Made by a program: the position numbers and the translations under genes. A model generated the notes under the pieces. It had not been told where the DNA came from. It saw only the letters and a list, made by a program, of their open reading frames with translations, and searched no databases. DNA of 53,849 nt, the filler included, from Jimgerdemannia flammicorona (lineage: Eukaryota), in NCBI GenBank assembly GCA_003990765.1. It is 3 parts of 3 records of this genome, joined end to end, with 100 filler letters (N's around TTAATTAATTAA, not from the genome) between each part and the next. Parts side by side here need not be neighbours in the genome. Positions count along the whole stretch, not along the records: positions 1 to 17,889 come from RBNJ01002374.1; 2 more parts are not named here. One strand, 5' to 3'. Below are positions 2,898 through 37,148 of the stretch, one piece after another (position 1 is the stretch's first letter; each line of letters starts with the position of its first letter).

Positions 2898-5846
2898 GGT
2901 GTTATAGATACTACTTGAGATATTAGTGCAGAGTGTGATAGGGTTCTTTGAGTCAGTGTAAGTTGCTAAAGTAATAGTTGTGGGTCTGGAGTGAGGGCTC
3001 AATAGATAGCTGTCTATTGCTGTATAGGTGTATTCTGTTCTAATAGAGGTGTATCTTCTTCAATAGTATATCTGAGATCGAATTCACTGAGATACTCCTC
3101 CTCCTCTTGGCTTTAGTCCCCATGTAATTGGGTTTGCTCAATGTCAAAGTAAAGAGAATTAGTTATATATCTGATTTCAGAAGGACTTAATTTAAAGTCA
3201 AGTTCTGGTTCAGTATTGGTTTTGGGTTCAGATAGGGCTATAGCTAGATCTGTTTCTGAGTCAGGGTCAGATTATTGATGAAGAGTTTCTCTTACTTTTT
3301 CCTTAAGAATATGGTAGGCCTTGCTGTTCTGAAATTGGTAGTATAATGTGGTCTTAGTCCTGGTATGGTGAAAGTTGGTAGAGTTGAGCCACTTGGCTAC
3401 AGAGACTTGGGCTTCATGAGGAACTAAGACTAGAAAGACTGCTGCTGATTGTTCTAGATTGCTCAGATTTGTGAAGCTGACAAAACTCTTATTGAGAAGA
3501 GTAAAGAAGGCTTCTATAAGACCTTCTTCATCTTGATTTGCTGGGTATAGTACAAGGAGTTCAGTGTATAGGGTTTTATCTATCTGCTGATTTAACTGGA
3601 GTACTTCTTTCTTCAAATGAAGTTTGTCCCACTTATTGCAGATGTGGAGGTCAAATTGTTCTTGTATGTCAGGTTCAATTCTCTCTAGATTGTCAAATGA
3701 TTTAGGATAAATTTTAGTTTAGAGATTGGGCTTTATACCAACTTGTAGGAATTCTCAGAGGGGTTTATAGTAGGGTGAAGAAGTATCTTAAAGCAGAATT
3801 GGATTGTAAACTGCTGCTACCAAGTTGTAAGTGGGTTACTTATTAAGATAACCATTATATAGTTCTGGAAGATTTTTCTGGAAGTTCTGAATATTCTAGA
3901 AGACTGTTTTCTTAAAGTTAAGATCAATTTCATATAGAGTATATCCTCTATGCTTATTGATTTTGAGATCAGGTTAACATCTCAACCAAAGTCCTTATTT
4001 GGACTAGTTTTGGATGTTCAGAATTTTCCATATTTCAGGAAGTTCAAGAAACTAAGACCAGCTTAGTTGAATTGGCATATCACTACAGACAATACTCAAT
4101 TAGGAAATTTCATAATATGGTTAGGAGTGGGACCTAATGGAGAGCAGATTTACTTAAGAGTAGTTTATGAGTTATTAAATAGATTTATTCATTATTTATA
4201 ATATTGCTATACTAGAAATAGTTGTGTGAAGGAATATTGTGAGAAAGTATTCAAAAATGTTCTTATGTATTCAAGTCTGAGATTCTGAGGTCTGGAGGAG
4301 GGGGTATTTATACTTATCTGGACTATATTGGATATGGATGTAGCACTTAGTACTTTGCTGAGTTGGAATGTAGTCATATAGTACAAGTGTGATCTGACAT
4401 ATTAAGAGATCATCTAACTGCTGAGTTAGTTCATAGTTATATTGTACAAGGCTAATCTAACTATACTATGACTGCTAAGCTATCTATAGATTTAGATGCT
4501 GTCTGAATAGTCTTTAATGACATCACCATTGATGATATCATCTCTGATGAAGTAGTCATCTAGGAAGAGTTATTTGCAGATTAATTCTTCTTGTTCACTG
4601 AGGTAATAATATATTGAGACTTCATCACTGTCCCATAGAATAGCATCATCTGTCTCATATGCTGGGTAAGATATTGGTGGACAAAGGAGGAATATATTAT
4701 CTTTACTTTCATCAGATTTACTATCTATGTATCTCCTATAAGTTATAGCACTATAAGTTACTGGGTTGTAGTAAGCTGGTAACTGTGGTTCATGTTGCTT
4801 ATACTTGGGTGACAGAGTTGTTGGTTTGATCTTGAGGGTTGTCTGGAGATATAGATTGTGTTCTCTAGTCTCTTCATTATAGTTGAAGTAATTGGAGATG
4901 AATACAGATTGGTACTCATACCAGTGGTCATTGTTCCAATAAGTCTCATAGATGGTTATGAACTATTGTAAATTTATTGACAAAGTTGGCAGAGTGATCA
5001 GGATTGGTAGAGATCCTTGGCTAGAGGTCATGTTAGTATCAGAGGGATCATTGTCTTCTACTTTATCTTCATCAAATCAAATTATATTATAGATGTCCTT
5101 CATGGTATATCCAACTTGAGACATTTACAGAATATAGTTATCAGGGTGTAGGAAGATTCTGTCTGTGGTCTGAATATACTCAAGGTACTTGTGGTTAAGT
5201 TCTTATATCAGGTCATCTATTTGGCCATAGGACAGAGTAGTGACTATTTCAGCAGTAGTAATTTAGAGGCAGAGAATAACAGTGCTATACTTATAAAAGA
5301 GTTCTTGATGTTTGTAGGCAATGAGTTTCTGGTGTTGAGACATCTGAATAATGTCTGTATTATAGTGGTATTTAACCATATCTTCTAGAAGGCAGCTGAT
5401 CTGATAGTAGCTTGAGATTTGTCCAATTTAGTAGGCTTCACTAAGTATGTTCAGAGCATTCCATTAGGTTTCCATGAAGTAGAGCTATGGATATTCATGA
5501 GGGGCAGAGGGGGTATGGCTCAGTTGACAATGGCATTCCAAATGTCAGCATGGATGCAGTTGTAGATCTTGGTGGCCATATTTATATATATGTTCAGGAG
5601 TTTGGGATTATTTGTTTGGTTTGTTTTGGTTCTCTGTTTCAATGTGTCTCAGTGCTCAGTATATATACATTTGGTCCTGATTGATAAGATTCTATTTGTA
5701 TGAATCTTGTATTCCATGACTTTGAGTTGACTCAACTTTGTGTGCTATGACTTCAGTTTGACTCAGCTTCATGATCTTGCAGGTGATTTCCAGATTTGTT
5801 CAGGGGTTGCATGTAATTTCAGTGACTTGGAGGTTGTGTGCTTACA
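2898..5846 (-). mobile_element. Partial Ty3/Gypsy family A (long-LTR variant A1): 5' LTR 3826-5846, PBS 3811-3822, start of polyprotein; interrupted by the hAT
   Basis: Reverse complement is colinear with 6802-9790. LTR termini TGTAAG...CTTACA. PBS TGGTAGCAGCAG. Confidence 0.9.
4492..5579 (-). pseudogene. Decayed second copy of the A1 LTR-internal cargo ORF
   Basis: Begins MATKIYNCIHADIWNAIVN, versus MTTEIYTRIHTDIWNAIVN at 7089. Same stop position; about 10 bp shorter. Confidence 0.7.
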
Positions 5847-6796
5847 TATCTTCCAGTATCAGTATCAATGATAGTATCAAAGATACAATCTTCAATCTGA
5901 TATTGAGTATAAGCTGAGGTCTTGTACTAATCTTCAGATTCTTTACCTAAGTCTTTTTATTCATCTTCTTGTACATTGTGAGCTTCTATGATCTTGTACT
6001 CTTGGTTTTTGACAGTAGTTACAAGTCTTACTCTCAACTACTGTCTGAAGGCAGGAACTTCTACTAGTTGTTCAAAAGTAGCATTAATCTTCTGTTTCTT
6101 AAGAACCTTGTAAATATCATACTGGTGAATCTTGGTCTTACACAGCTTCTGTTCTTTCTTGTTTTTGCTTTCTCCTGAGACTGGAGTGATGTCTTTAATA
6201 ATTTGGCAGGCAACTTCATCTAACTCTATATCTTGATCAATCTCCTCAAGTTGGGTCTTACTTTGAATAGTAATGGTTGAGGTCTTTTTTGGTCTTCCAA
6301 CTAGCTTACTATTGTCCTTCTTATCATAGGGCTTGGACTGAGTTCTGATACCTTCAATAATAGGGTAAAAGTCAGACTTCTTATAGTATTCTTCATCATC
6401 AGTATCATCAATCTCCTCAATGACTATTGTATTAATTTGTTCTCTGATTCTGATAGTATTACTTAGTTGAGCTCTATATCTTATTTCAGTTATATAATTC
6501 TTTATATAGTGGCCTTCTTCTCTATATTTGAAGTATGTAATAGTACATTTCTCTATAGTAGTTGTAAACTTCTACACTAGTCTCCTGTTGGCACTTCATA
6601 CTTCTCTAATAATATTACTAAGATATACAGTCATCTTGACAAACTGCTGGATAAGTTCCTCCACTAGGTCAGCTTTGGTTATCTTGGGAGTAGGTAGGAA
6701 TAGTTGTCTGTTAATGGCTGTAGTAAGTATGATACTGGTTGGTTTTGATAGCTCTATATTGATACCAGTTATTCTTTCTATTAAGTATTTGGTAGG
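5847..6796 (-). mobile_element. Relic gag (3' part) of an older retroelement (family C), target of the A1 insertion
   Basis: Minus strand ~6490-6540 reads YFKYREEGHYIKNY, a CX2CX4HX4C knuckle with all three Cys codons changed by G->A. Continues on the far side of the ATGTC TSD. Confidence 0.65.
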
Positions 6797-6801
6797 ATGT
6801 C

Positions 6802-8862
6802 TGTAAGTGCACAACCTCCAAGCCGCCAGAATTACACGTCACCCTCTGAACAAGTTACTGAAATCACACATGACCCTGAACAAATCTGGAAATCACCTGC
6901 TTAATCACGAAGCTGAGTCAAACCGAAGTCACAGCACACAAATCTGAGTCAATACGAAGTCACAGAACACAAGGTTTATATAAACGGAATCTTACCAATC
7001 AGGACCAAATGTATATATACCGAGCACCGAGATGCATTGAATCAGAGAACCAAAACAAACAACAACCACAACTTCCAAACACACAAACATGACCACTGAG
7101 ATCTATACCCGCATTCACACTGACATTTGGAATGCCATTGTCAACCGAGCCACACCCCCTCTACCCCTCATGAATATCCATAGCCTGGCACCCCTCTACT
7201 TCGTGGAAGCCTGATGAAACACTCTGAACATACTTAGCGAGGCCCACCGAATCAGACAAATCTCAAGCTACTATCAGATCGGCTGCCTCCTAGAAGACAT
7301 GGTCAAACACCACCATGATACAGACATTACCCAGATATCTCAACACTAGAAGCTCATCACCCGCAAACATTGAGAACTCTTCTATGCGTACAGCACCTTT
7401 ATTCCCCGCCTCCGAGTTACTACTAGCAAAATGATTGCTACCCTGTCCTATGGCCAAATCGATGACATGATACAAGAACTCAACCAGAAGTACCTCAAGT
7501 ATGTGGAAACCACAGACCGAACCTTCCCCCACCCCAATGATCACATCCTGCAAATGCCCCAAGTTGGATATGTCATGAAAGACATCTATGATATAATCCA
7601 CTTCGACGAAGACGAAGTAGAAGACAATGATCTCTCCGATGCCGACATGACCTCTAGCCAAGGATCTCTGCCAACCCTGATCACACCGCCAACCTTACTG
7701 ATGAACTTACAATAGTTCATAACTGCATACAAGACTTATTGGGACAATGACCACTGGCATGAATACCAACCTGCATTCACCCCCGATTACTTCAACTACA
7801 ATGAAGAGACTGGAGAACACAACCTGTACCTCCAGACAACCCTCGAGATTGAACCAACCACTCCACTACCTGAGTACGAGTAACATGAACCACAGCCACC
7901 AGCTTACTACAATCCTGCAACTCATAGTGCTGTAACCTATAGAAGATACGCAGATAGTGAATCTGATGAAAGTGAAGACAATATACCCATCCTTCACTCA
8001 CCAATACCTTATCCAGCATACAAGACAGACAATGCTATCCTGTGAGATGGAGACAAAGTTCCAATGTACTATTACCTTAGCAAACAAGGAGAAATAATCT
8101 GCGAATCATTATTCCTAGATGACTACTTCATCAGAGATGATACAATTGATGGTGATGTCATCGAGGACTACCCAGACAGCGCCTAAACCCATAAATAGCC
8201 TAGCAGTCATAGTATAGTTAGATTAGCATTGTACGATGTGACTGTGAACTAACTCAGCAGTCAGACGATCTCTTGACATGTCAGATCACACTTGTACTAC
8301 ATGACTGCATTCCGACTCAGCAAGGCACTTAGTGCTACATCCATATCTAGCATAGCCCAGATAGCCCCTCACTAGTATAAATACCCCCTCCCCCAGACCT
8401 CAGAATCTTAGACTTGAACACACAAGAACATTCCTAAATACTTCTCCACAATATCCCTTTACATAACTACTCCTAGTATAGCAATATCATGAATAGCAAA
8501 TAAACCTATTCAATAACCCACAACCCACTCTTAAGTAAATCTGCTCTCTGTTAGGTCCCACTCCTAACCCTATCATGAAATTTCCTAATTGGATATTGTC
8601 TGCAGCGATACACCAATTCAACTAAGCTGGTCTTAGTCTCTTGAACTTCCTGAAATACGGAAAATCCTGAACATCCAGAACTAGTCCAAAAAAGGACTTT
8701 GGTTGAGACATCAACCTGATCTTGAAATCAATAAGTATAGAGGACGTACTCTATATGAAATTGATCTTGACTATAAGAAAACGGTCTTCCAGAACATCCA
8801 GAATATCCAGAAACCCTTCCCAGAACTATGTAACAGTTATCCTAAAAAGCAACCCTCTTACA
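6802..8862 (+). repeat. 5' LTR of A1 (2061 bp)
   Basis: Matches 3826-5846 along its length and 14533-15215 over its last ~680 bp. TATAAA at ~8376. Confidence 0.9.
7089..8186 (+). pseudogene. ~365-aa unknown ORF wholly inside the LTR U3 (cargo ORF A1)
   Basis: 366 codons in one frame from ATG 7089 to TAA 8186. Internal stops are each one transition from a sense codon, with no frameshift. Includes track ORF 7431-7715. Acidic/Pro-rich C-terminal half ends DDTIDGDVIEDYPDSA*. Confidence 0.7.
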
Positions 8863-8865
8863 ACT

Positions 8866-8877
8866 TGGTAGCAGCGG
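8866..8877 (+). promoter_or_regulatory. Primer-binding site, probably for initiator tRNA-Met
   Basis: TGGTAGCAGCGG 3 nt after the LTR end, complementary to a ...CCGCUGCUACCA tRNA 3' end. Same motif at 3811, 30337 and 41246. Confidence 0.8.
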
Positions 8878-10889
8878 TTTACAATCCAATTCCGCTTCAA
8901 GATGCTTCCTCACCCTGCTACAAACCCTTTCAAGAATTCCTACAAGTTGGTATAAAGCCCAACCTCTGAACTAGAATTTATCCTGAACTATCTGACAATC
9001 TGGAGAGAATTGAACCTGACATATAAGAACAATTTGACCTCCACACCTGCAATAAGTGGGATAAACTTCATTCAAAGAAAGAAGTACTCTGGTTAAACTA
9101 GCAAATAGGTGAAACCCTATTCACTGAACTCCTTGCACTACACCCAGCAAGTCAAGATGAAGAAGGTCTTATTGAAGCCTTCTTTACTCTTCTCAATAAG
9201 AGTTTTGTCAGCTCTACAAATCCAAGCAATCTAGGACAACCAGCAGCAGTCTTTCTAGCCTTAGTTCCTCACAAAGCCCAAGCCTCCATAGCCAAGTGGC
9301 TCAACTCTACTGACTTTCACTGCACCAGAACCAAGACCGCCTTATACTACTGATTCCAGAACAGTAAGGCCTGCCATATTCTTAAGGAAGAAGCAAGAGA
9401 AACCCTTCATCAACTACCTGACCCCGAACCTGAAGCAGGCCCTGCTATAGCCCTACCTGAATCTGAAACCAATACCGAACCTGAACTTGACTTTGAATTA
9501 AGTCCATCTGAAATCAGATATATAACTGATTCTGTCTACTTTGACGCTGAGCAAACCCAATTACATGAGGACCAAACTGAAGAAGAGGAGGAGTATCTCA
9601 GTGAATTCGATCCCAGATATACGACCAAAGGAGAAGTACCTCCATCAGTACAGAATACACCTACACAGCAACAAACAGTTATCTATCAAGCCCTCACTCC
9701 AGATCCACAACTACTACTCCAGCAACTTACACAGACCCAAAGAACCCCATCACACTCTATACCAGTACCTCAAGTAGTACCAGTAACACCACTATCAGCA
9801 GTTCAAGCACCTCCAGTAAACAATATGGCAAACCAACAGATTCTTGATCTCACAGCCCAAGTAGCTATAATGGCAGCAACTATTACTGTCTTAGCTGAAC
9901 AGACCCAACCTACCAAAAATCTGAGCCTACCTACCTTCAATGGTACTGCACAAGAAGTCCAAAGCTTCATTAGTATAGTTGACACCAACTTCGAAGCCAA
10001 TCAATGGACCAATGAGTGAGTTGCTGACCGCATTCTGACAAACAATCAAGACCACACTCTGGAACAACTCTTTGCTACAACTACAGCCTATGTCTGTCGA
10101 GTTGTTACATTCTTCCGAGGACCTGCTGAAGAATGGTGGTGAACCCTTCCTGAAAAACCCCTCACATGGGATACCCGACCTGCAGTAGTTGCTCAGAATG
10201 CAGCAAACAATGCCCCAGGATATAGAGCCCATCCTGCAGCCCCTGGACTCAAACAACTCATGATTGCTCAATACTGCAGCGAAACCATGATTGCCAAATC
10301 TTAAGTAAAACTCCGCAACCTCAAATTTGATATACATGGCAAAGAAGAATTCAAAACCTTCTGTACAAAACTCGAGTCACTCCTGAACACTGTTGGCCTA
10401 GGATACATCACCAATGATGAAGCACGAAATGGTACAAGAGCAGATCATTTATTTAATGCTCTACTGGAATGGCTTACAAGAAAAATCCAAGAGAAAGGCT
10501 GCCCAGTTAGTTGTGATCACCAACAATGGTGCCTGGTAAGAATCAAGACCATGGTCAAGTGAATTCTAACAGCTGGACCAATTCTGCCTCGAAGACAATT
10601 CAACAACAAGGAAAGGACTTGGACTAAGAAAGAAGAACCCAAGCATGAAGCACCCCGAGCTCCCTCCACATCCACCTCTTGGACACCCAGAAATCCTGAA
10701 CCCACCCAGCCCAGTACCTTTAAGAAACTTACTGAAGGCAAAAGGAATGAACTTTGAAGAAGTAGAGTATGCTTCTATTACTGAAAGACAGGACATATGG
10801 CCAGTACCTGCCCTAACCAAAAACCCCGAACAGCAACATGAGCAACTGTTACCACTCTGTACTATCTCAACAACCTGACCACCAGAATA

Positions 10890-11300
10890 CTAGACTTTGT
10901 CAAGTTAAGACAAACTGCTAAGGCCCCAACCAAAGGAAGTCAAAAAGCAGCCAGATATGATCTATATGCAGCTGAAGAAGCTACAGTTTCTAACCGAGAA
11001 GTCAAACAAGTCTATATAGGAATCAGTATCCAAATCCCAGAAGGACATGTTGGAAGAATATGCTGTCGCAGCAGCCTAGCATTGAAAGGACTCTCAGTAG
11101 AAGGAGGAGTCATTGACAAGAATTACACAGGCGAAATTATTGTCCTCATCTGAAACCACAGTTGGACACCCTTCAAGATCCCTATTGGTTTCTGCATTGC
11201 CCAGATCCTATTCGAAAAAATCGAGTCAACTCTGACAGTCAAGGAAGTCTCTGAACTACTGCCTACTATCCAAGGATCTAAAGGATTTGGCTCATCAAAC
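10890..11300 (+). pseudogene. dUTPase domain between nucleocapsid knuckle and protease
   Basis: All five trimeric dUTPase motifs: A(R/G)YDL (AAGYDL in the copy at ~32420), RSSLA, GVIDKNYTGEI, IAQI, QGSKGFGSS. Confidence 0.9.
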
Positions 11301-27010: not shown

Positions 27011-28445
27011 CTATCACTCATTTCTAGTCCAGATATATATAGAAGCAGAACAATAAGAAGTAGTCATTATCTGAGAAATATTAGATCTTTTATAATATCT
27101 TTGTATTATACTGAAACCTATTGAGGCCTAAAATGAACCTGTTGATGAATAACTCACTAGTATATATATGTATATATAACCTAGATTATCTAAAATTCTA
27201 TCTGAAATTTCATATACATAACCTATAAGCTATAAGACTAATAAGGAATAAAGAACTATAGGATAAGAAGATGAGGGAGCAAGATAATGAGAGGCCCAGA
27301 GATAGACTGCAGATAGATATTAGATAGTAGACTATAAGATAAATAATAAATAGTAGGCTATAGGATACTATTAACATATATATAACAACTAAGTCAAAAC
27401 TGCATACTATAATATAAATATACTATATGTTCTATCAATTTGTAGCATTTGTATAAAGTTAGAATATTCTTAAAAAACTAAATATCAGAGGACCTCATAA
27501 AGCTTCTGAGTCTAGTCAGAGGATAACTGATCTCTATTACTATAATTACTCTTAATACATGCAGGTACAGGGGGCTGGTATATGTGGGCAGCATATGTAG
27601 GCAGTGCATATGAGTAGTGTATATATGTAAGTACATAACCTCCAAGTCACCAAAATCGCATGGCATCCTCAGAACTAATTTAGAAACCACATGCGAGACT
27701 ACAAAACAAGAAATCATCTAATTATACGAAATATACCAGCAAGTACGAGAACCCACTGCCAAGATATAAGAATACTAGAAGAAGTACTATAACCATAAGA
27801 CTGACTCTGAACTGCTATAATTAGTTTAGTGTACTGTACTATTACAAAAGGAAACCGAAAGTACCAAATTCAAATTGAGACAAGAAGAACCCTATCTCAT
27901 CTACCAAAAGGTTCATGAACTGTACTTATCAACTCAAGACCAAGGTACACTATGACTATACAAGACCTCATTACTTAGCAAAAGCAAAACACATTTGAAC
28001 AACTCTGTTCACTCTATCTGTGTCACCTCCGTTGGAGAGTGACAGATACTTCATCTGAACTCAAGAAAGCCGACAACATCGAAACCAATCTCAAGTCATC
28101 CATGTGACAGATATTACTACTAGAAATTGCCTCGGATTACAGAAAATATCATTTCTGAGAGGTTTGAACCCCCAGCCACAACATTGGGAGCCCTCGCCCT
28201 AGACGAGAATGGCCAGTCCTCGCAAATGTACCAGTAGACCAAAAAAAAAGAGAACCAAGACCTGTTATCCTTATACAACTACCACCACCAAAGACAGTCT
28301 TAATCTTACAAGAGATAGAAGTGACGATATCTTGAAACTAATGATGTCAGAAGTTAGAAAACTGTTCAGACTTTACCAGTGATGATGTCATCAATAGTGA
28401 TGTTATCAAAGACTACTCAGACAGTACCTAAACCTATAAATAGCC

Positions 28446-29612
28446 AGGCTCCTTTCTCTGCTATCTTACCAGTCACAAGGTTTGATAGGCGACCTTCCGA
28501 GTCCCCTTTCCTCTATTATTACCCTCTCTACCTTGGGTTGGTTTGCTGTGCCTGCAGAGGCATGGTGGGAGGAGGGCAATGGTGATGAGTTGCCCCTTTA
28601 TTGGTATCAGATTGGTGCTTCCTCTACTTTTTCATGGATTCTGGTGCCTTTGGCTGTATCTGGGGTATACCCATTTTGGTGTAGCACCTTCTTCCTTTTG
28701 CCATCGCTAACAAGGAGTTGTCTCGGTGTATCTCGGGCTATGTAGGGAGTTGGCTGACCTTGGGTGTCAAGTACTCAGTGTAGGTTACCTGTAGGTCCTC
28801 AGTACCTGTGGTGGGGCCCTCTGGCTTTGGCGAGCTTCCCGGCGAGCATAGTTCTGGCATAGGTGACTGTTTTTCGGGTGTTGTCGGGATGGGAGAGAAG
28901 ATGGCTGTCACAGATAGGAGGAAGGGTGATAACGGTGAACCAGTAGGGTACCAGGCTGGGGGCAGTCATCAGAGCTGGGGCAGGTGCTGCTTTGGTGAGA
29001 CCTTTTGATTGGTGCAGCACAGTTAGGTGGTAGGGTCACTATTGGCTTCCTTTGGCAGTCAGTGGAGTTGGGCCCCAGTCGTCAGGGGGGGTCAGGAGGC
29101 CTGAGGCTACCCATTTCAGGTGTCTTGGCTACACTCAACTAGAACCAAGAGCTGATATGGCAATGTGATCGAGGCCTGCAGACTTAAGTAGTAGGGTATT
29201 GGGAGTTTCCTCCCACCTTACATGTAAGTTCTTTACTCACTTCAACTGGGAGAACCAGGCTCTACCCACCGTATTGTACTTTGATGAGGGTTTTTTCTTT
29301 GCCTGTCATTCTCTTTAGGGTGGCAGAGGCTATTCTATTCGGCTCAGGCATGGCCTTGTACATATGTTGGGTTCTCAGGTGTGTGCTTTCAGTCGTTGGC
29401 ATATGGTTGGATTTCTCCTGGTGGTAGGGAGAGCATGGTGTACAGAATGAGGTGTGGGCCTACATCGGTCCTATTGTACCTGGCATGGTCAAGCTGCTGG
29501 ACAATAGCTAGCCTAGGTTAATGAGAGGACAGTGCTTGGTGGGTGGTGGGGGAGGGTTTTGGCCTATATAGTCTAGGTTCTCTTCCAATAAAAATCTGCA
29601 AGACATGAGTCC

Positions 29613-29658
<46 letters not shown>
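28446..29658 (+). mobile_element. ~1.2-kb poly(A)-tailed non-autonomous retroposon, copy 1, inserted in the A2 5' LTR
   Basis: Absent from the 3' LTR. TSD AAACCTATAAATAGC at 28430-28444 and 29656-29670. AATAAA at 29587; poly(A) at 29616-29658. Confidence 0.9.
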
Positions 29659-29661
<3 letters not shown>

Positions 29662-32600
29662 ATAAATAGCTTAGCAGTCATAGTATAGTTAGATTAGTCT
29701 TATACAATATGACTGTGAACTGACTCAGCAGTCAGATGATCTCTTGACATGTCAGATCACACTTATACTATGTGACTATATTCTGACTCAGCAAGGTACT
29801 TAGTACTACATCCATATCTAGTATAGTCTAGATAGCTCCTCACTAGTATAAATACCCCCTCCCCCAGACCTCAGAATCTCAGACTCGAACACACAAGAAT
29901 ATTCCTGAATACTTCCCCACAATATCCCTTCACACAACTACTCCTAGCATAGTAATATCATAAATAGCGAATAAACCTATTTAATAACCCACAAACCACT
30001 CTTAAGTAAATTCACTCCCTATTAGGTCTCACTCCTAACTCCATCATGAAATTTCCTAATTGGGTATTGTCTGCAGTGATATGCTGATTCAACTAAGCTG
30101 GTCTTAGTTTCTTGAACTTCCTGAAATATGGAAAATCCTGAATATCCAGAACTAGTCCGAAAAAGGACTTTAGTTGAGACATCAACCTGATCTTGAAATC
30201 AATAAGTGTAGAGGATGTACTACATATGAAATTGATCTTGACCATAAGAAAACAGTCTTCCAGAATATCCAGAACTTCCAGAAAACCCTTCCAGAACTAT
30301 GTAACGGTTACTCTAAAAAGCAACCCTCTTATAACTTGGTAGCAGCAGTTCCCAATCCAATTCCGCTTCAAGATGCTTCCTCACTCTGCTACAAACCCTT
30401 CTGAGAATTCCTACAAGTTGGTATAAAGCCCAACCTCTGAACTGGAATTTATCCTGAACCATCTGACAATCTAGAGAGAATTGAACCTGACGTATAAGGA
30501 CAATTTGACCTCCACACCTGCAACAAGTGGGACAAACTTCACTCTAAGAAAGAAGTACTCCAATTAAACCAGCAAATAGGTGAAACTCTATTCACCGAAC
30601 TCCTTGCACTACACCCAGTAAGTCAAGATGAAGAAGGTCTTATAGAAGCCTTCTTTACTCTTCTTAACAAGAGTTTTGTCAGCTCCACAAATCTGAGTGA
30701 CCTAGGACAACCAGCAGCAGTCTTTCTAGCCTTAGTTCCTCATAAAGCCCAAGCCTCTGTAGCCAAGTGGCTTAACTCTACTGACTTTCACTATACCAGG
30801 ACCAAGACCGCGTTATACTACCAATTTCAGAACAGCAAGGCCTGCCATATTCTTAAAGAAGAAGCAAGAGAAACCCTTCATCAACTACCTGACCCCGAAC
30901 CAGAAGCAGGCCCTGCTGCAGCCCTACCTGAATCTGTAACCAACACCGAACCAGAACTTGACTTTGAATTAAGTCTATCCAAAATCAGATATACAACTGA
31001 TTCTATCTATTTTGACACCAAGCAAACCCAATTACATGAGGACCAAACTAAAGAGGAGGAGAAGTATCTCAGTGAATTCGATCCCAGATATACCACCAAA
31101 GGAGATGTACCTCCATCAGGACAGAACATACCTACACAGCAATAAACAGCTATCTATCAAGCACTCACTCCAGACCCACAACTATTACTCCAGCAACTTA
31201 CACAGACTCAAAGAACATCCTCACACTCTGCACCAGTACCTCAAGTAGTACCAGTAACACCACTACCAGCAGTCTAACCACCTCCAGTAAACAACATAGC
31301 AAACCAACAGATTCTAGACCTCACAGCCCAGGTAGCAATAATGGCAGCAACCATTACTGCCTTAGCTGAACAGACCCAACCTATCAAAAATCTGAGCCTA
31401 CCTACCTTCAATGGTACTGCACAAGAAGTCCAAAGCTTTATTAGTGTAGTTGACACCAACTTTGAAGCCAATCAATGGACCAATGAGCGAGTTACTGATC
31501 GCGTTCTGACAAACAATCAAGACCACACTCTGGAACAACTCTTTGCTACCACTACAGTCTATGTCCGCTGAGTTGTTACATTCTTCCGAGGACCCGCCAA
31601 AGAATGGTGGTGAACTCTTTCTGAAAAACCCCTCACATAGGACACCTGACCCACAGTAGTTGCTCAGAATGCAGCAAACAATGCCCCAGGATATGGAGCC
31701 CATCCCGCAGCCCCTGGACTCAAATAACTCATAATTGCTCAATACCACAGTGAAACCATGATCGCTGAATCCCAAGTAAAACTCTGCAATCTCAAATTCG
31801 ATATATATGGCAAAGAAGAATTTGAAACCTTCTGTACAAAACTCGAGTCACTCCTGAATACAGTTGGCCTAGGATATATTGCCAATAATGAAGCATGAAA
31901 TGGTACAAGAGCAGATCATTTATTTGATGCCCTACCTGAATGGCTTACTAGAAAAATCTGAGAACAAGGCCGCCCAGTTGGTTGCGATCACCAACAATGG
32001 TGCCTGGCAAGAATCAAGACTATGGTCAAGCAAATCCTAACAGCTGGACCAATTTTGCCCTGAAGACAATTCAATAACAAGAAAAAGACTTGGACCAAGA
32101 AAGAAGAACCCAAGCATGAAACATCCTGAGCTCCCTCCACATCTACCTCATGGACACCCAGAAATCATGAACTCACCCAGCCAAGTACCTTCAAGAAACT
32201 CACTGAAGGAGAAAGAAATGAACTTTGAAGAAGCAGAGTATGCTTCTATTGCCGAAAGACAGGACACATGGCCAGTGCCTGCCCCAACTGAAAACCCTGA
32301 ACAACACCACGAGCAACTGTTACCACTCTGTACCACCTCAACAACCTGACCACCAGAACACTAGACTTTATCAAGTTAAGACAAACTGCTAAGGCCCCAA
32401 TCAAAGGAAGTCAAAAAGCAGCTGGATATGACCTGTATACAGCCAAAGAAGCTACAGTCTCCAATCGAGAAGTCAAGCAAGTCTATATAGAAATCAGCAT
32501 CCAAATTTCTGAAGAACATGTTGGAAGAATATGCTATCACAGCAGCCTAACATTAAAAGAACTCTCAATAGAAGGAGGAGTCATTGATGAGGATTATATA

Positions 32601-33833
32601 GGCGAAATTATAGTCCTCATCTGAAACCACAGTTGGATACCCTTCAAGATCTCCATAGGTTTCTGCATCACTCAGATCCTATTCGAGAAAATCGAGTCAA
32701 CCCTGATAGTCAAGGAAGTCCCTGAACTACTGCCCACCATCCAAGGATCCAAAGGATTTGGTTCATCAAACAAAGCCCCAGCCCAATCTACTGTGAACAA
32801 AGAAGAACAATTCTATAAGAAAATTGAAGATGGATATGTACCAAGTGGCCAATGCCCCCATGGCATTGGAATGTACTCTTCCCAAATGATCGACAATTGC
32901 TTCTCTTGTGTCAACGAATTAGCTCAAAGAAGAACCAACAGAAGGAAAGCTCCTACAACTGAAATCACCACCATTGGATCAGACAAACTACTTACACTTA
33001 AAGCTTTTGTCAACCGAGCACTTGTCAAGATTATGATAGACAGTGGTGCCTCAGGCAACTTCATCAATGAAGAAACAGCCAATAGACTCAAGGTCTTCAC
33101 CTCTCCAGTACAACAAACTCAAGCAGTTGCCACAGCTGATGGAACCTCACATGTCATCAGCAAGGAAGTCCACAATCTATCCTTCTGAATTGGAGACTAT
33201 CAAGTACATGTTATCCTCTAAATTGTACCACTTCCTGACAATGAAATCATCCTTGGGACTCCATGGTTAAAACAAGAGAACCCTATGATTGATTGGGTAA
33301 ACCATTCTCTAACCATCAAGAAAGAATGCCACAACTTCAAACTGTAAGGTGAAAAGGACCCACTTAGTTCTAGTGACCCTGGACCAAAGATCACTCACAT
33401 CAACAAGCTACAACTTAAGAAATTAGCCAAGAAATGCTCTCTCTTTGCTATCTCCATTCATCTATCCAAAGAAGAACCCAAGAACTCTAAAGAAGACTTT
33501 TCTAAAGTTGACAGCCATGTCAGATTACTACTCCAGAAGGTCCGAGATACATTTCTGAACCAAACCACAAAACCACCTGCACCTGTCATTATTAATGACC
33601 AAGAAGAATACAAAGTTGAACAAATCCTCAACAAACATAGACACAAGAATCATCCAAATGGTACAACAACACCAGAACAAATTAGAAGGCCCTGATGAGG
33701 ACATTGAAAGCTAAGAAGGAGAGAGTTGTAAGCACACAACCTCCAAGCCACCAAAATCACATGGTATCCTCAGAACTAATTTGGAAACCACATGTGAGAC
33801 TACAAAACAAGAGATCATCTGGTTACATGAAAT

Positions 33834-34532
33834 ATGCCAGCAAGTATGAGAACCCACCGCCAAGATACAAGAATACTAGAAGAAGTACTACAACCATAAG
33901 ACTGACTCTGAACTGCTATAACTAGTTTGGTGTACTGTACTATTACAAAAGGAAACCGAAAGTACCAAACTCAAATTGAGACAAGAAGAACCCTATCTCA
34001 TCTACCAAAAGGTTCATGAACTGTACTTATCAACTCAAGACCAAGGTACACTGCAACTATACAAGACCTCATTACTTAGTAGAAGCAAAATACATTTGAA
34101 CAACTCTGTTCGCTCTATCTATATCACCTCTATTGGAGAGTGACAGACACTTCATCTGAACTCAAGAAAGCCAACAACATCGAAACCAATCTCAAGCCAT
34201 CTATGTGACAGATATTACTACTAGAAATTGCCTCGGATTACAGAAAATATCATTTTCGAGAGGTTTGAACCCCCAGCCACAACATTGAGAGCCCTTGTCC
34301 TAGATGAGAATGGCCAGTCCTTGCAAATGCACCAGCAGATCAAAAAAAAAGAGAACCAAGACCTGTTATCCTTATACAACCACCACCACTAAAGACAGCC
34401 TTAATCTTGTAAGAGATAGAAGTAATGACATCTTGAAACTGATGATATCAGAAGTCAGAAAACTGTTCAGACTTTGCCAGTGATGATGTCATCAATAGTG
34501 ATGTCATCAAAGACTACCCAGACCGTACCTAA
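33834..34532 (+). pseudogene. ~232-aa unknown ORF in the A2 LTR U3 (cargo ORF A2; second copy 27733-28431)
   Basis: 233 codons in one frame from ATG to TAA, with stops explicable by single transitions. One TGA of the 5' LTR copy is CGA here. Ends DDVINSDVIKDYPDRT* at the same stop position as the A1 cargo. Confidence 0.55.
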
Positions 34533-35285
34533 ACCTATAAATAGCTTAGCAGTCATAGTATAGTTAGATTAGCCTTATACAATATGACTGTGAACTGACT
34601 CAGCAGTCAGATAATCTCTTGACATATCAGATCACACTTGTACTACATGACTACATTCCGACTCAGCAAGGCACTTAGTACTACATCCATATCTAGTATA
34701 GTCCAGATAGTCCCTCACTAGTATAAATACCCCCTCCCCCAGACCTCTGAATCTCAGACTCGAACATACAAGAACATTTCTGAATACTTCTCCACAATAT
34801 CTCTTCACACAACTACTCCTAGTATAGTAATATCATGAATAGCGAATAAATCTATTTAATAACCCACAAACCACTCTTAAGTAAATCCACTCCCCGTTAG
34901 GTCCCACTCCTAACCCCATTACGAAATTTCCTAATTGGGTATTGTCTGCAGCGATATACCGATTCAACTAAGCTGGTCTTAGTTTCTTGAACTTTCTGAA
35001 ATACGGAAAATCCTGAACATCCAGAACTAGTCCGAAAAAGAACTTTGGTTGAGACGTTAACCCGATCTTGAAATCAATAAGTATAGAGAATGTACTCTAT
35101 ATGAAATTGATCTTAACTATAAGAAAACAGTCTTCTAGAATATCCAGAACTTCCAGAAAACCCTTTCAGAACTATGTAACAGTTACCCTAAAAAGCAATC
35201 CTCTTACAGTATGGGTAGTACATATAGATAGTATATATAAATAGTATATATATAGAGATATAGTATATATGGTCATATGAGCACC

Positions 35286-35870
35286 GCTCCTTTCTCTGCT
35301 ACCTTACCTGTCACAAGGTTTGGTAGGCGACCTTCCGAGTCCCCTTTCTCCTATTATTACCCCCTCTACCTCGGGTTGGTTTGCTGTGCCTGCATGGGTA
35401 TGGTGGGAGGAGGGCAATGGTGATGAGTTGCCCCTTTATCGGTGTCAGATCGGTGTCTTCTCCACTTTTTCGCGGTTTCTGGTGTCTTCGGCTGCGTCTA
35501 GAGTGCATCCGTTTTGGTGCGGCACCTTCTTCCTTTTGCTGTCGTCAACAAGGTGCTGTCTCGGTGTATCTCGGGCTACGTAGGGAGTCGGCCGACCTTG
35601 GGCGTCAAGTGCTCAGTGTAGGTTACCTGCAGGTCCTTGGTGCCTGTGGTGGGGCCCTCTGGCTTTGGCGAGCTTCCCGGCGAGCGCGGTTCTGACGTAG
35701 GTGACTGCTTTTCGGTGATGTCGGGATGGGAGGGGAGATGGCCGTCACAGATAGGAGGAAGGGCGATTACGGTGAACCAGTGGGGTGCCAGGCTGGGGGC
35801 GGTCATCGGGGTTAGGGCGGACAATATTTCGGTGGGGCCTTTCGATTGGCTGGTGGGGGGTGGGGTGGTG
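35286..35870 (+). mobile_element. Retroposon copy 2 (CpG-rich, least decayed; cut by the gap)
   Basis: Colinear with ~28448-29020 and has the same 5' start. Confidence 0.88.
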
Positions 35871-35970: not shown

Positions 35971-37148
35971 TTTTTAACAGAATCAATATCCCACAGATTT
36001 TTATTGGAAGGAAACCTAGACTATATAGGCCAAAACCCTCTCCCACCACTCATCAAGCACTGCTCCTCTATTAATCTAAACTAGTTATTATCTAATATAT
36101 AGCTCAACTATACTAGACATAGGACCTATATTGGTCTGCATCTCATTCTGCACACCATGCTCTCCCTACCACCAGGGGGAACCCAGCCATATGCCAATAA
36201 CTGAAAGTACATATCTGAGATCTCAATATATGTACAAGGCTATACCTGAGCTAAATAGAATAGCTCCTACTATCTCAAAGAGAATGATAGATAAAGAAAA
36301 ACTCTCATCAAAGTATATTAAAGTAGGTAGAGCCTAGTTCTCTCAGTCGAGATGAGTAAAGGACTTACACATGAGGTGGGAGGAGACCCCCAATACCTCA
36401 TTACTCAAGCCTGCAGGCCTTAATCACATTGCTATATCAGTTCTTAGTTCTAGTTAAGTGTAGCTAAGATGTCTGAAATGAGTAGCTTTGGGCTCTCCAA
36501 CTCCCCCCCAATGACTGGGGCCCAACCTGCTGAATTGTCAAAAGAAGCTGAGAGTGATATCTACTACTTAACCACTCTACACCAATCAAAAGGACCTACC
36601 GAAGCAGTATCTGCTCTAGCTTCAATGACCACTCCCAGCCTAGCACTCTACTGGTTCAATGTTGTTACTCTTCCTCCTATCTATAATGGCCATCTCTCCT
36701 TCCATCCTGACAATATCTAAAAAGCATTCACCTATACTAGAACCATGCTCACTAGGAAGCTTGCCAAAGCCAGAGAGCCCTACCACAGATACTGAGAATC
36801 TACAGATAACCTACACTAAGCACTTGATGCCTAAGGTCAGCTAACTCTCTACATAGCCTGTAATATACTAAGACAGCACCTTGTTGGTGACAGCAAAAGA
36901 AAGAAGGCACTGTACCAAAATAGATATATTTCAGATACAGCTAAATACACCAGAAACCACAAAAAAGTAGAGAAGACACCAATCTGATACCAATAAAGGG
37001 GCAACTCATTACCATTACCTCTCTCCCACTGCTCTGCAACAGATACAGCAAACTAACCTGAGATAGAGGGAGTAATAATTGTGGAAAGTGAACTCAGAAG
37101 GTTGCCTACCAAACTATTATAACTAGTAAGATAGTAGAGAAAGAGGGT
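35971..37148 (-). mobile_element. Retroposon copy 3 (most decayed)
   Basis: Reverse complement of the full unit. TTTATT near 36000 and a T-run at the gap edge. Confidence 0.88.

Follow-up and report, generated by a model that had tools for sequence, protein, structure and literature searches.

A protein-coding frame in the U3 region of a chromovirus LTR in the fungus Jimgerdemannia flammicorona

Introduction

Open reading frames (ORFs) located inside long terminal repeats (LTRs) have been described as sag in MMTV and nef in lentiviruses, in bovine foamy virus, and in some HML consensus LTRs (PMC2664473, in part). As to the extra ORFs of retrotransposons, those described lie either ahead of gag-pol or in the interval from pol to the 3' LTR (PMC7264820; PMC3485330, PMC5408684 and PMC6431247, in part), examples being the sense and antisense aORFs of plants and gene23 of Grande (PMC7264820), ORF0 of rice Retrosat2, and the ORF3s of bdelloids (parts of PMC3485330 and PMC5408684). 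No description of a gene lying within a fungal retrotransposon's LTR was found in the titles or abstract openings returned by a full-text literature search (few subscription journals, supplements aside; the element tables in PMC2864245 and PMC3248453 may be relevant here), and the available part of the fungal survey PMC3248453 contains nothing on LTR genes. Here we describe such a frame from a window of 53,849 nt, the whole stretch of J. flammicorona DNA that was analysed, in which it lies entirely within the U3 region of the LTR of a Ty3/gypsy element.

Results

The element and its long terminal repeats

The element starting with the LTR at 6802-8862 is a fungal chromodomain Ty3/gypsy retrotransposon, or chromovirus (Table 1). 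Its pol region has the order PR-RT-RH-IN, with protease, RVT_1 and rve recognised by Pfam and RNase H identified by eye only. In the window the 3' LTR has lost the ORF by a deletion reaching from the integrase to about LTR position 8178, by which the chromodomain has gone as well. In six out of six other copies displayed, integrase, chromodomain, purine tract and the same LTR follow each other, and PF00385 chromodomains score above cut-off in family copies with the LTR ORF behind them; the repeat therefore forms a genuine LTR on either side of the element, which is a chromovirus. This agrees with the identity given by an earlier, sequence-only reading of the window, as do the chitin synthase genes (PF01644) of the genome with the fungal host. 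The tRNA-Met(CAT) matching the primer-binding site is present at two places in the genome. The 5' and 3' LTRs of the window differ at 38 of 678 nt, exclusively by transitions. Genome searches yielded 4,205-5,930 hits, which are first-look candidates across searches and not copy numbers.

The gag frame carries a long N-terminal extension (8970-9800) under selection (piN/piS 0.25), for which Pfam gave no match in the part scanned (9354-10019); a similar stretch was recognised by eye in a family whose LTRs measure ~0.8 kb and lack the ORF (L182, L187). Both long-LTR elements of the window are hosted by a fragment of another retroelement (5830-6801), in which a decayed zinc-knuckle-like gag frame (6038-6571, minus strand) was seen by eye. 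Other genes in the window include hAT-like transposase fragments (711-1482; by eye, with a weak RNase H-like Pfam match), a gene piece with a Crinkler N-terminal domain (PF20147; 43311-47020, minus strand) followed downstream by a frame of 434 aa without Pfam match, as well as two paralogous GTPase-like genes in divergent orientation with weak MMR_HSR1 matches and long Cys-rich repeat tails (48038-49900, minus strand, and 50991-52538, plus strand).

Table 1. Features of the U3 ORF, its host element and related elements in the window
Feature	Position	Strand	Remarks
Target-site duplication, 5 bp, left copy	6797..6801	+	right copy 15216-15220
5' LTR, 2,061 bp, TGTAAG...CTTACA ends	6802..8862	+	same repeat behind chromodomain and PPT in other copies
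CCAAT (6995) and TATA-like word (7014), candidate own promoter of the ORF (predicted)	6995..7019	+	75 nt before ATG
U3 accessory ORF, 365 aa, 7 premature stops	7089..8186	+	ATG...TAA, 366 codons
Helical N-terminal domain of ~135 aa (predicted), probably common to the U3 genes of this and two other gypsy families	7089..7500	+	
TATAAATA, main TATA box, likely genomic-RNA promoter (predicted)	8376..8383	+	99-100% per column, 87 copies
AATAAA, candidate polyadenylation signal in R (predicted)	8499..8504	+	
Primer-binding site, 12 nt, complement of tRNA-Met(CAT) 3' end (with CCA)	8866..8877	+	
Decayed gag-pol: gag, dUTPase, protease, RT, RNase H, integrase	8970..14530	+	chromodomain end deleted
3' LTR remnant without ORF	14531..15215	+	element ends at 15215
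Second ORF copy, in older element fragment (2898-5829)	4492..5579	-	10-nt deletion, 9 stops
5' LTR of short-LTR, RT-less element, split by ~1.2-kb repeat insertion	27626..30331	+	
Short LTR variant of the same element, 1.48 kb, retaining only the last ~18 ORF codons	33727..35208	+	

The U3 ORF and its genomic copies

The sequence-only reading had placed in U3 an ATG-to-TAA frame of 366 codons and had attributed to it the length of the LTR. Its start, end and position in U3 were borne out, and 1,098 of the LTR's 2,061 bases belong to the ORF. Its internal stops fall at codons 42, 43, 87, 95, 209, 265 and 319, and at each of them the majority of other copies (67-88 of 96-98) have a sense codon. 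That all stops derive from transitions held nearly completely at five of them, where almost all sense counterparts differ solely by C>T/G>A steps; at the remaining two such a difference applies to 48/67 and 63/87 sense codons. The second copy (1,088 nt) has indeed kept the same ATG and TAA, while its deletion near codon 32 shifts the frame. Both window copies are thus mutated relics.

Our main sample consisted of 55 genomic copies picked for their similarity, at the DNA level, to the two copies of the window. The ATG is kept in 51 and the terminal TAA in 53 of these, and the commonest internal stop occurs in 25; in wider copy sets the ATG is found in 92/97 and an A at -3 in 96/97. As the sequence-only reading had anticipated for a consensus, no internal column of the ORF frame holds a stop in at least 80% of the 55 copies, versus 4-22 such columns in the five other frames. 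Naturally open copies number three among the 45 full-length ungapped ones of this sample, and 23 out of 41 in a set selected by protein similarity, which is biased by this selection.

The substitution pattern is that of a coding sequence. Pairwise piN/piS over the 55 copies is 0.20 (interval 0.12-0.33) for transversions and 0.51 (0.43-0.60) for transitions, to be compared with 0.08 for the integrase and 0.25 for the start of gag on the one hand, and with 0.59-1.21 in non-coding LTR, 1.39 and 1.86 in shifted frames, and 0.77-1.03 in the U3 of a short-LTR derivative on the other hand. The signal is weakest, and not significant, for codons 1-120 taken alone (0.49, interval 0.18-1.23). Of the two signs of a non-gene that had been named beforehand, frame-random indels and a dN/dS of about 1, the former was found, with indels in 10/55 copies, all private; these are uninformative, being expected of dead insertions. 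The latter was not, as the transversion ratio lies clearly below the ~1 of non-coding LTR. The U3 ORF is almost certainly a protein-coding frame under purifying selection.

C>T/G>A changes are nearly neutral (0.78-1.25), and C>T rates among LTR copies (L001-L132) amount to 0.26-0.32 at CG, 0.12 at CA and 0.05-0.08 at CC. Being near-neutral and mostly at CG and CA, these changes explain the stops in the ORF as decay after insertion. The contexts of repeat decay in this genome are broader than CpG alone, including CA and CC.

Layout of the LTR and candidate expression signals

Both the main TATA box at 8376 and the AATAAA at 8499 lie downstream of the ORF end (8186), which places the ORF in U3, the transcription start of the genomic RNA being a predicted one. 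A TATA-like word precedes the ATG of the ORF in 91/94 copies, with CCAAT just upstream in 88/94; these are consensus matches and no proof of a promoter. The TATA pattern was set post hoc, and conservation of A/T sites extends over the whole LTR. From these motifs it seems reasonably likely that the ORF is driven by a U3 promoter of its own. Another word, TATATAA at 6977, was rejected as a promoter, being present in only ~10% of 90 copies, and a fusion of the ORF to gag is excluded by fixed stops at 8196-8682 and 8967. The leader of the ORF contains conserved YAG words. Tandem repeats of 31-121 nt, candidate binding sites, are found in U3 beside the ORF in this family and in the two further ones described below (window 6906-6967, L243:2338-2477, L234:1993-2209).

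None of the runs on record as RNA was listed as containing the stretch, and no transcript or peptide of the ORF was seen. Contigs of one run, X1, cover the LTR including the ORF at ~85% identity and almost nothing of gag-pol; that this run is RNA is a guess, and it was kept out of the evidence.

The predicted protein

The N-terminal ~135 residues are predicted to be all-helical (model pLDDT 51.5, pTM 0.41; 35.5 pLDDT for the full-length model), and this domain is not basic (12 K/R, 16 D/E). The tail that follows is acidic, aromatic, Pro-rich and of low complexity, with 51 D/E, 7 K/R, 30 W/F/Y and 23 P, a make-up which we take to match that of acidic activation domains. The protein displays no clear nuclear localisation signal and no hydrophobic or membrane segment (maximal 19-residue hydropathy 0.86).

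No family had been recognised by the sequence-only reading, and this was confirmed: searches of Pfam, PHROGs and PDB sequences gave no match, enzyme and toxin families included. The Foldseek comparison it had suggested returned nothing at E<=0.001 with the low-confidence model, the best VIA-align Z being 5.5, and no DNA-binding fold was detected; at a pLDDT of 51.5, a fold search neither assigns nor excludes any fold. Likeness to Sag, Nef, Tas/Bel1, CERV or VANC was not found by Pfam, PDB or BFVD matches, again with low-confidence models.

Read through its stops (as X), the window protein matched one of 418 candidates, P0002 (64-67% identical), a protein from a short contig that is 67% identical with two 2-residue gaps. 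A profile search of 1.84 billion representatives recovered P0002 and P0003 (N-terminus 95% identical, also from a short contig) and no cellular homologue; a repeat protein at E 6e-4 was dismissed as chance. A profile of all three families, searched against longer proteins only, retrieved P0005 and P0007, both of family G/H (see below). No loci were found in metagenome or viral contigs, and the ESM Atlas gave no usable match to P0002 or to residues 1-170 of P0005.

Similar U3 genes in two other gypsy families

Two further gypsy families with a U3 gene, G and H, were found from ORFs in fetched flanking DNA. The ORF of family G (971 candidates) encodes 328 aa and is part of an LTR of ~2.4 kb; in family H (6,312 candidates) the LTR measures ~1.55 kb, by our own reading, and the ORF encodes ~275 aa. 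These ORFs lie 207-242 nt inside the LTR start, upstream of TGTATAAATA, and their proteins have an acidic tail too. Across the three families the proteins contain 0-5 Cys and reach a maximal hydropathy of 0.48-0.86. A TATA-like word stands 75 nt before the ATG in the chromovirus (91/94), 62 nt in G (13/13) and 87 nt in H (18/18); it arises in 4-7% of leader shuffles in each family, the pattern having been chosen post hoc. For transitions, piN/piS among copies selected by protein is 0.64 in G and 0.50 in H; for transversions the intervals span 1. In the copies read, the G and H integrase tails lack a chromodomain; their identity to that of the window chromovirus is 26% (G) and 23% (H), the range among the three lineages being 23-41%.

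The U3 proteins of G and H are clearly homologous to each other by sequence comparison (E 2e-12). Over 132 collinear residues the window protein is 23% identical to them (2 of 2,000 shuffles), a 12-row alignment spanning the families has 13 invariant columns, and a G/H profile ranked the family of the window protein next at E 0.009-0.03. A second profile gave E 0.9 (13-78 of 5,000 shuffles), and hhalign, in profile-profile tests of kinship that were not significant, a probability of 0.3% on shallow profiles. Taken together, these comparisons suggest that the window U3 protein is probably akin to those of G and H in its N-terminal domain.

No U3 ORF was found in the other gypsy families reached by chromodomain, dUTPase and primer-binding-site searches, which have short LTRs; dUTPase loci were screened only via the flank-ORF search. 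A decayed fourth U3-gene-like family, ~45-50% identical to H, was noticed at L042:1639-2167 and in L240 (minus strand, 923-432).

A short-LTR derivative lacking the ORF

A 4.9-kb non-autonomous derivative of the chromovirus lies at 27626-35208 of the window, with gag, dUTPase and protease, no RT or integrase, and recombinant LTRs. At positions 83-611, its U3 matches the integrase tail and 3' UTR of a different gypsy family with ~70% identity. The short-LTR family has 3,094 first-look candidates in the genome, and in 9/30 loci its internal region ends at a point corresponding to ~12084 of the window, before RT. An ORF in the short LTR was looked for and rejected, there being 7-19 fixed stops per frame and no conserved frame. 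As this ORF-less derivative has multiplied, the ORF sequence is dispensable in cis, and the spread of the derivative despite the loss of the gene points to an action in trans.

A dispersed repeat of ~1.2 kb is present at 28451-29622, 35286-35849, 35971-37146 and 52676-53849 of the window; one copy is followed by a long poly(A) run and one is inserted in the short LTR, and it is possibly a non-LTR element.

Discussion

The U3 ORF is a genuine accessory gene, hitherto unnamed and unusually located. For its function we tentatively favor, at somewhat less than even confidence, a self-contained gene whose product regulates in trans the expression of its own element. Purifying selection kept the ORF during the spread of the family, and C>T/G>A decay then broke it in most copies. 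Its transcription would start from the putative TATA-like promoter near the 5' end of the LTR and end at the candidate poly(A) signal of the LTR, which would make 5', 3' and solo LTRs alike possible expression units. In the soluble product, the helical domain may give specificity and the acidic tail may recruit host factors, which would make it a transactivator or an anti-silencing factor in a genome heavily mutating its repeats. Yet the domain is not basic and neither a DNA-binding fold nor a clear nuclear localisation signal was detected. The TATA pattern behind the proposed promoter is post hoc, A/T sites are conserved LTR-wide, and the selection signal is weakest in codons 1-120. Other gypsy families of the genome, whose LTRs are short, do without the ORF.

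The same selection data would suit an accessory protein acting after transcription, helping the genomic RNA to be exported, packaged or reverse-transcribed, or serving as a partner of Gag or integrase in the manner of CERV, a reading we regard as rather unlikely. The ORF follows pol in the genomic RNA, at the site where spliced accessory genes are found (parts of PMC5408684 and, for CERV, of PMC10309623), and the product may possibly come from a spliced RNA of the 3' U3, like other ORF3s; the YAG words of the leader and the non-basic domain are in keeping with this, whereas the TATA-like words at matching distances in three families favor a dedicated promoter and the acidic tail appears poorly suited to RNA binding. 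An orphan, fast-diverging and soluble protein with a long low-complexity tail, in a position like that of sag and nef (PMC2664473, in part), could also be a selfish factor directed at the host and not at its own element, blocking host defence or acting in internuclear competition (e.g., by RNAi suppression or degradation of host proteins), and accessory proteins of transposable elements have numerous predicted contacts with those of the host (PMC13547354, in part); no enzyme or toxin family was matched though, and we deem this distinctly unlikely.

That the frame is a captured fragment of a host gene or a relic of another element, passive in U3 and of no function for the element, is very improbable. 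The U3 does take up foreign DNA, as the short LTR with the integrase tail of another family attests, but that captured piece has a piN/piS of 0.8-1.0 and fixed stops in all frames, against 0.20 for the ORF, which largely refutes passive capture, and no cellular homologue came up among the 1.84 billion representatives. An env-like membrane protein, to which the position 3' of pol would correspond, is scarcely credible given the acidic tail, the few cysteines and the lack of a hydrophobic segment in all three families.

Returning to the trans-acting regulator, a bolder version is that chromoviral and non-chromoviral gypsy lineages share one undescribed protein family as a U3 cassette of promoter, ORF and LTR poly(A) signal, encoding an activator or anti-silencing factor that acts in trans. 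We hold this to be doubtful at present; if true, thousands of solo LTRs would be potential expression units helping elements to escape methylation-linked decay. Annotation treats LTRs as non-coding sequence, and solo LTRs as nothing more than dead regulatory scars. A selected gene wholly within U3, in a family with thousands of candidate copies and with a like layout in two other families, implies that genes of this kind readily escape notice and that even a solo LTR can be a carrier of coding sequence. If the protein counters silencing, it would offer a testable handle on the retrotransposon-driven inflation of fungal genomes that mutate their repeats.

Among known systems, sag of MMTV and nef of primate lentiviruses (PMC2664473, in part) are close in layout, each being a long sense ORF situated towards the 5' side of the LTR, copied into both LTRs and making the LTR unusually long. 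The U3 ORF differs from them by its fungal host, its Ty3/gypsy chromovirus without env, the candidate promoter inside U3 and the absence of a membrane segment, and the likeness is one of position only; no similarity in sequence or fold was found. With the additional ORFs of other retrotransposons (aORF, ORF3, ORF0) it has in common to be a family-wide, selected, orphan accessory gene; gene23 of Grande has its own promoter (PMC7264820), as proposed here, and bdelloid ORF3 types are shared between distant elements (PMC5408684, in part). Unlike these, the U3 ORF lies entirely within the LTR, upstream of the TATA box, and is hence carried by solo LTRs. The dUTPase-bearing fungal chromoviruses PosPlaTy3 and those of Phanerochaete and Tuber have the same gypsy domain order, a chromodomain, and a dUTPase in pol; the part of PMC2864245 presenting them describes no LTR-borne gene, and a legend names an unplaced "add. 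ORF" of unknown function. As functional models we consider CERV of the C. elegans element Cer1 and the anti-silencing VANC proteins of VANDAL, trans-acting regulators of their own element (parts of PMC10309623 and PMC13547354). Family, PDB and fold searches with low-confidence models showed no similarity to either, and CERV comes from a spliced mRNA and VANC from plant DNA transposons (same sources, in part), whereas the gene described here resides in the U3 of a fungal LTR retrotransposon.
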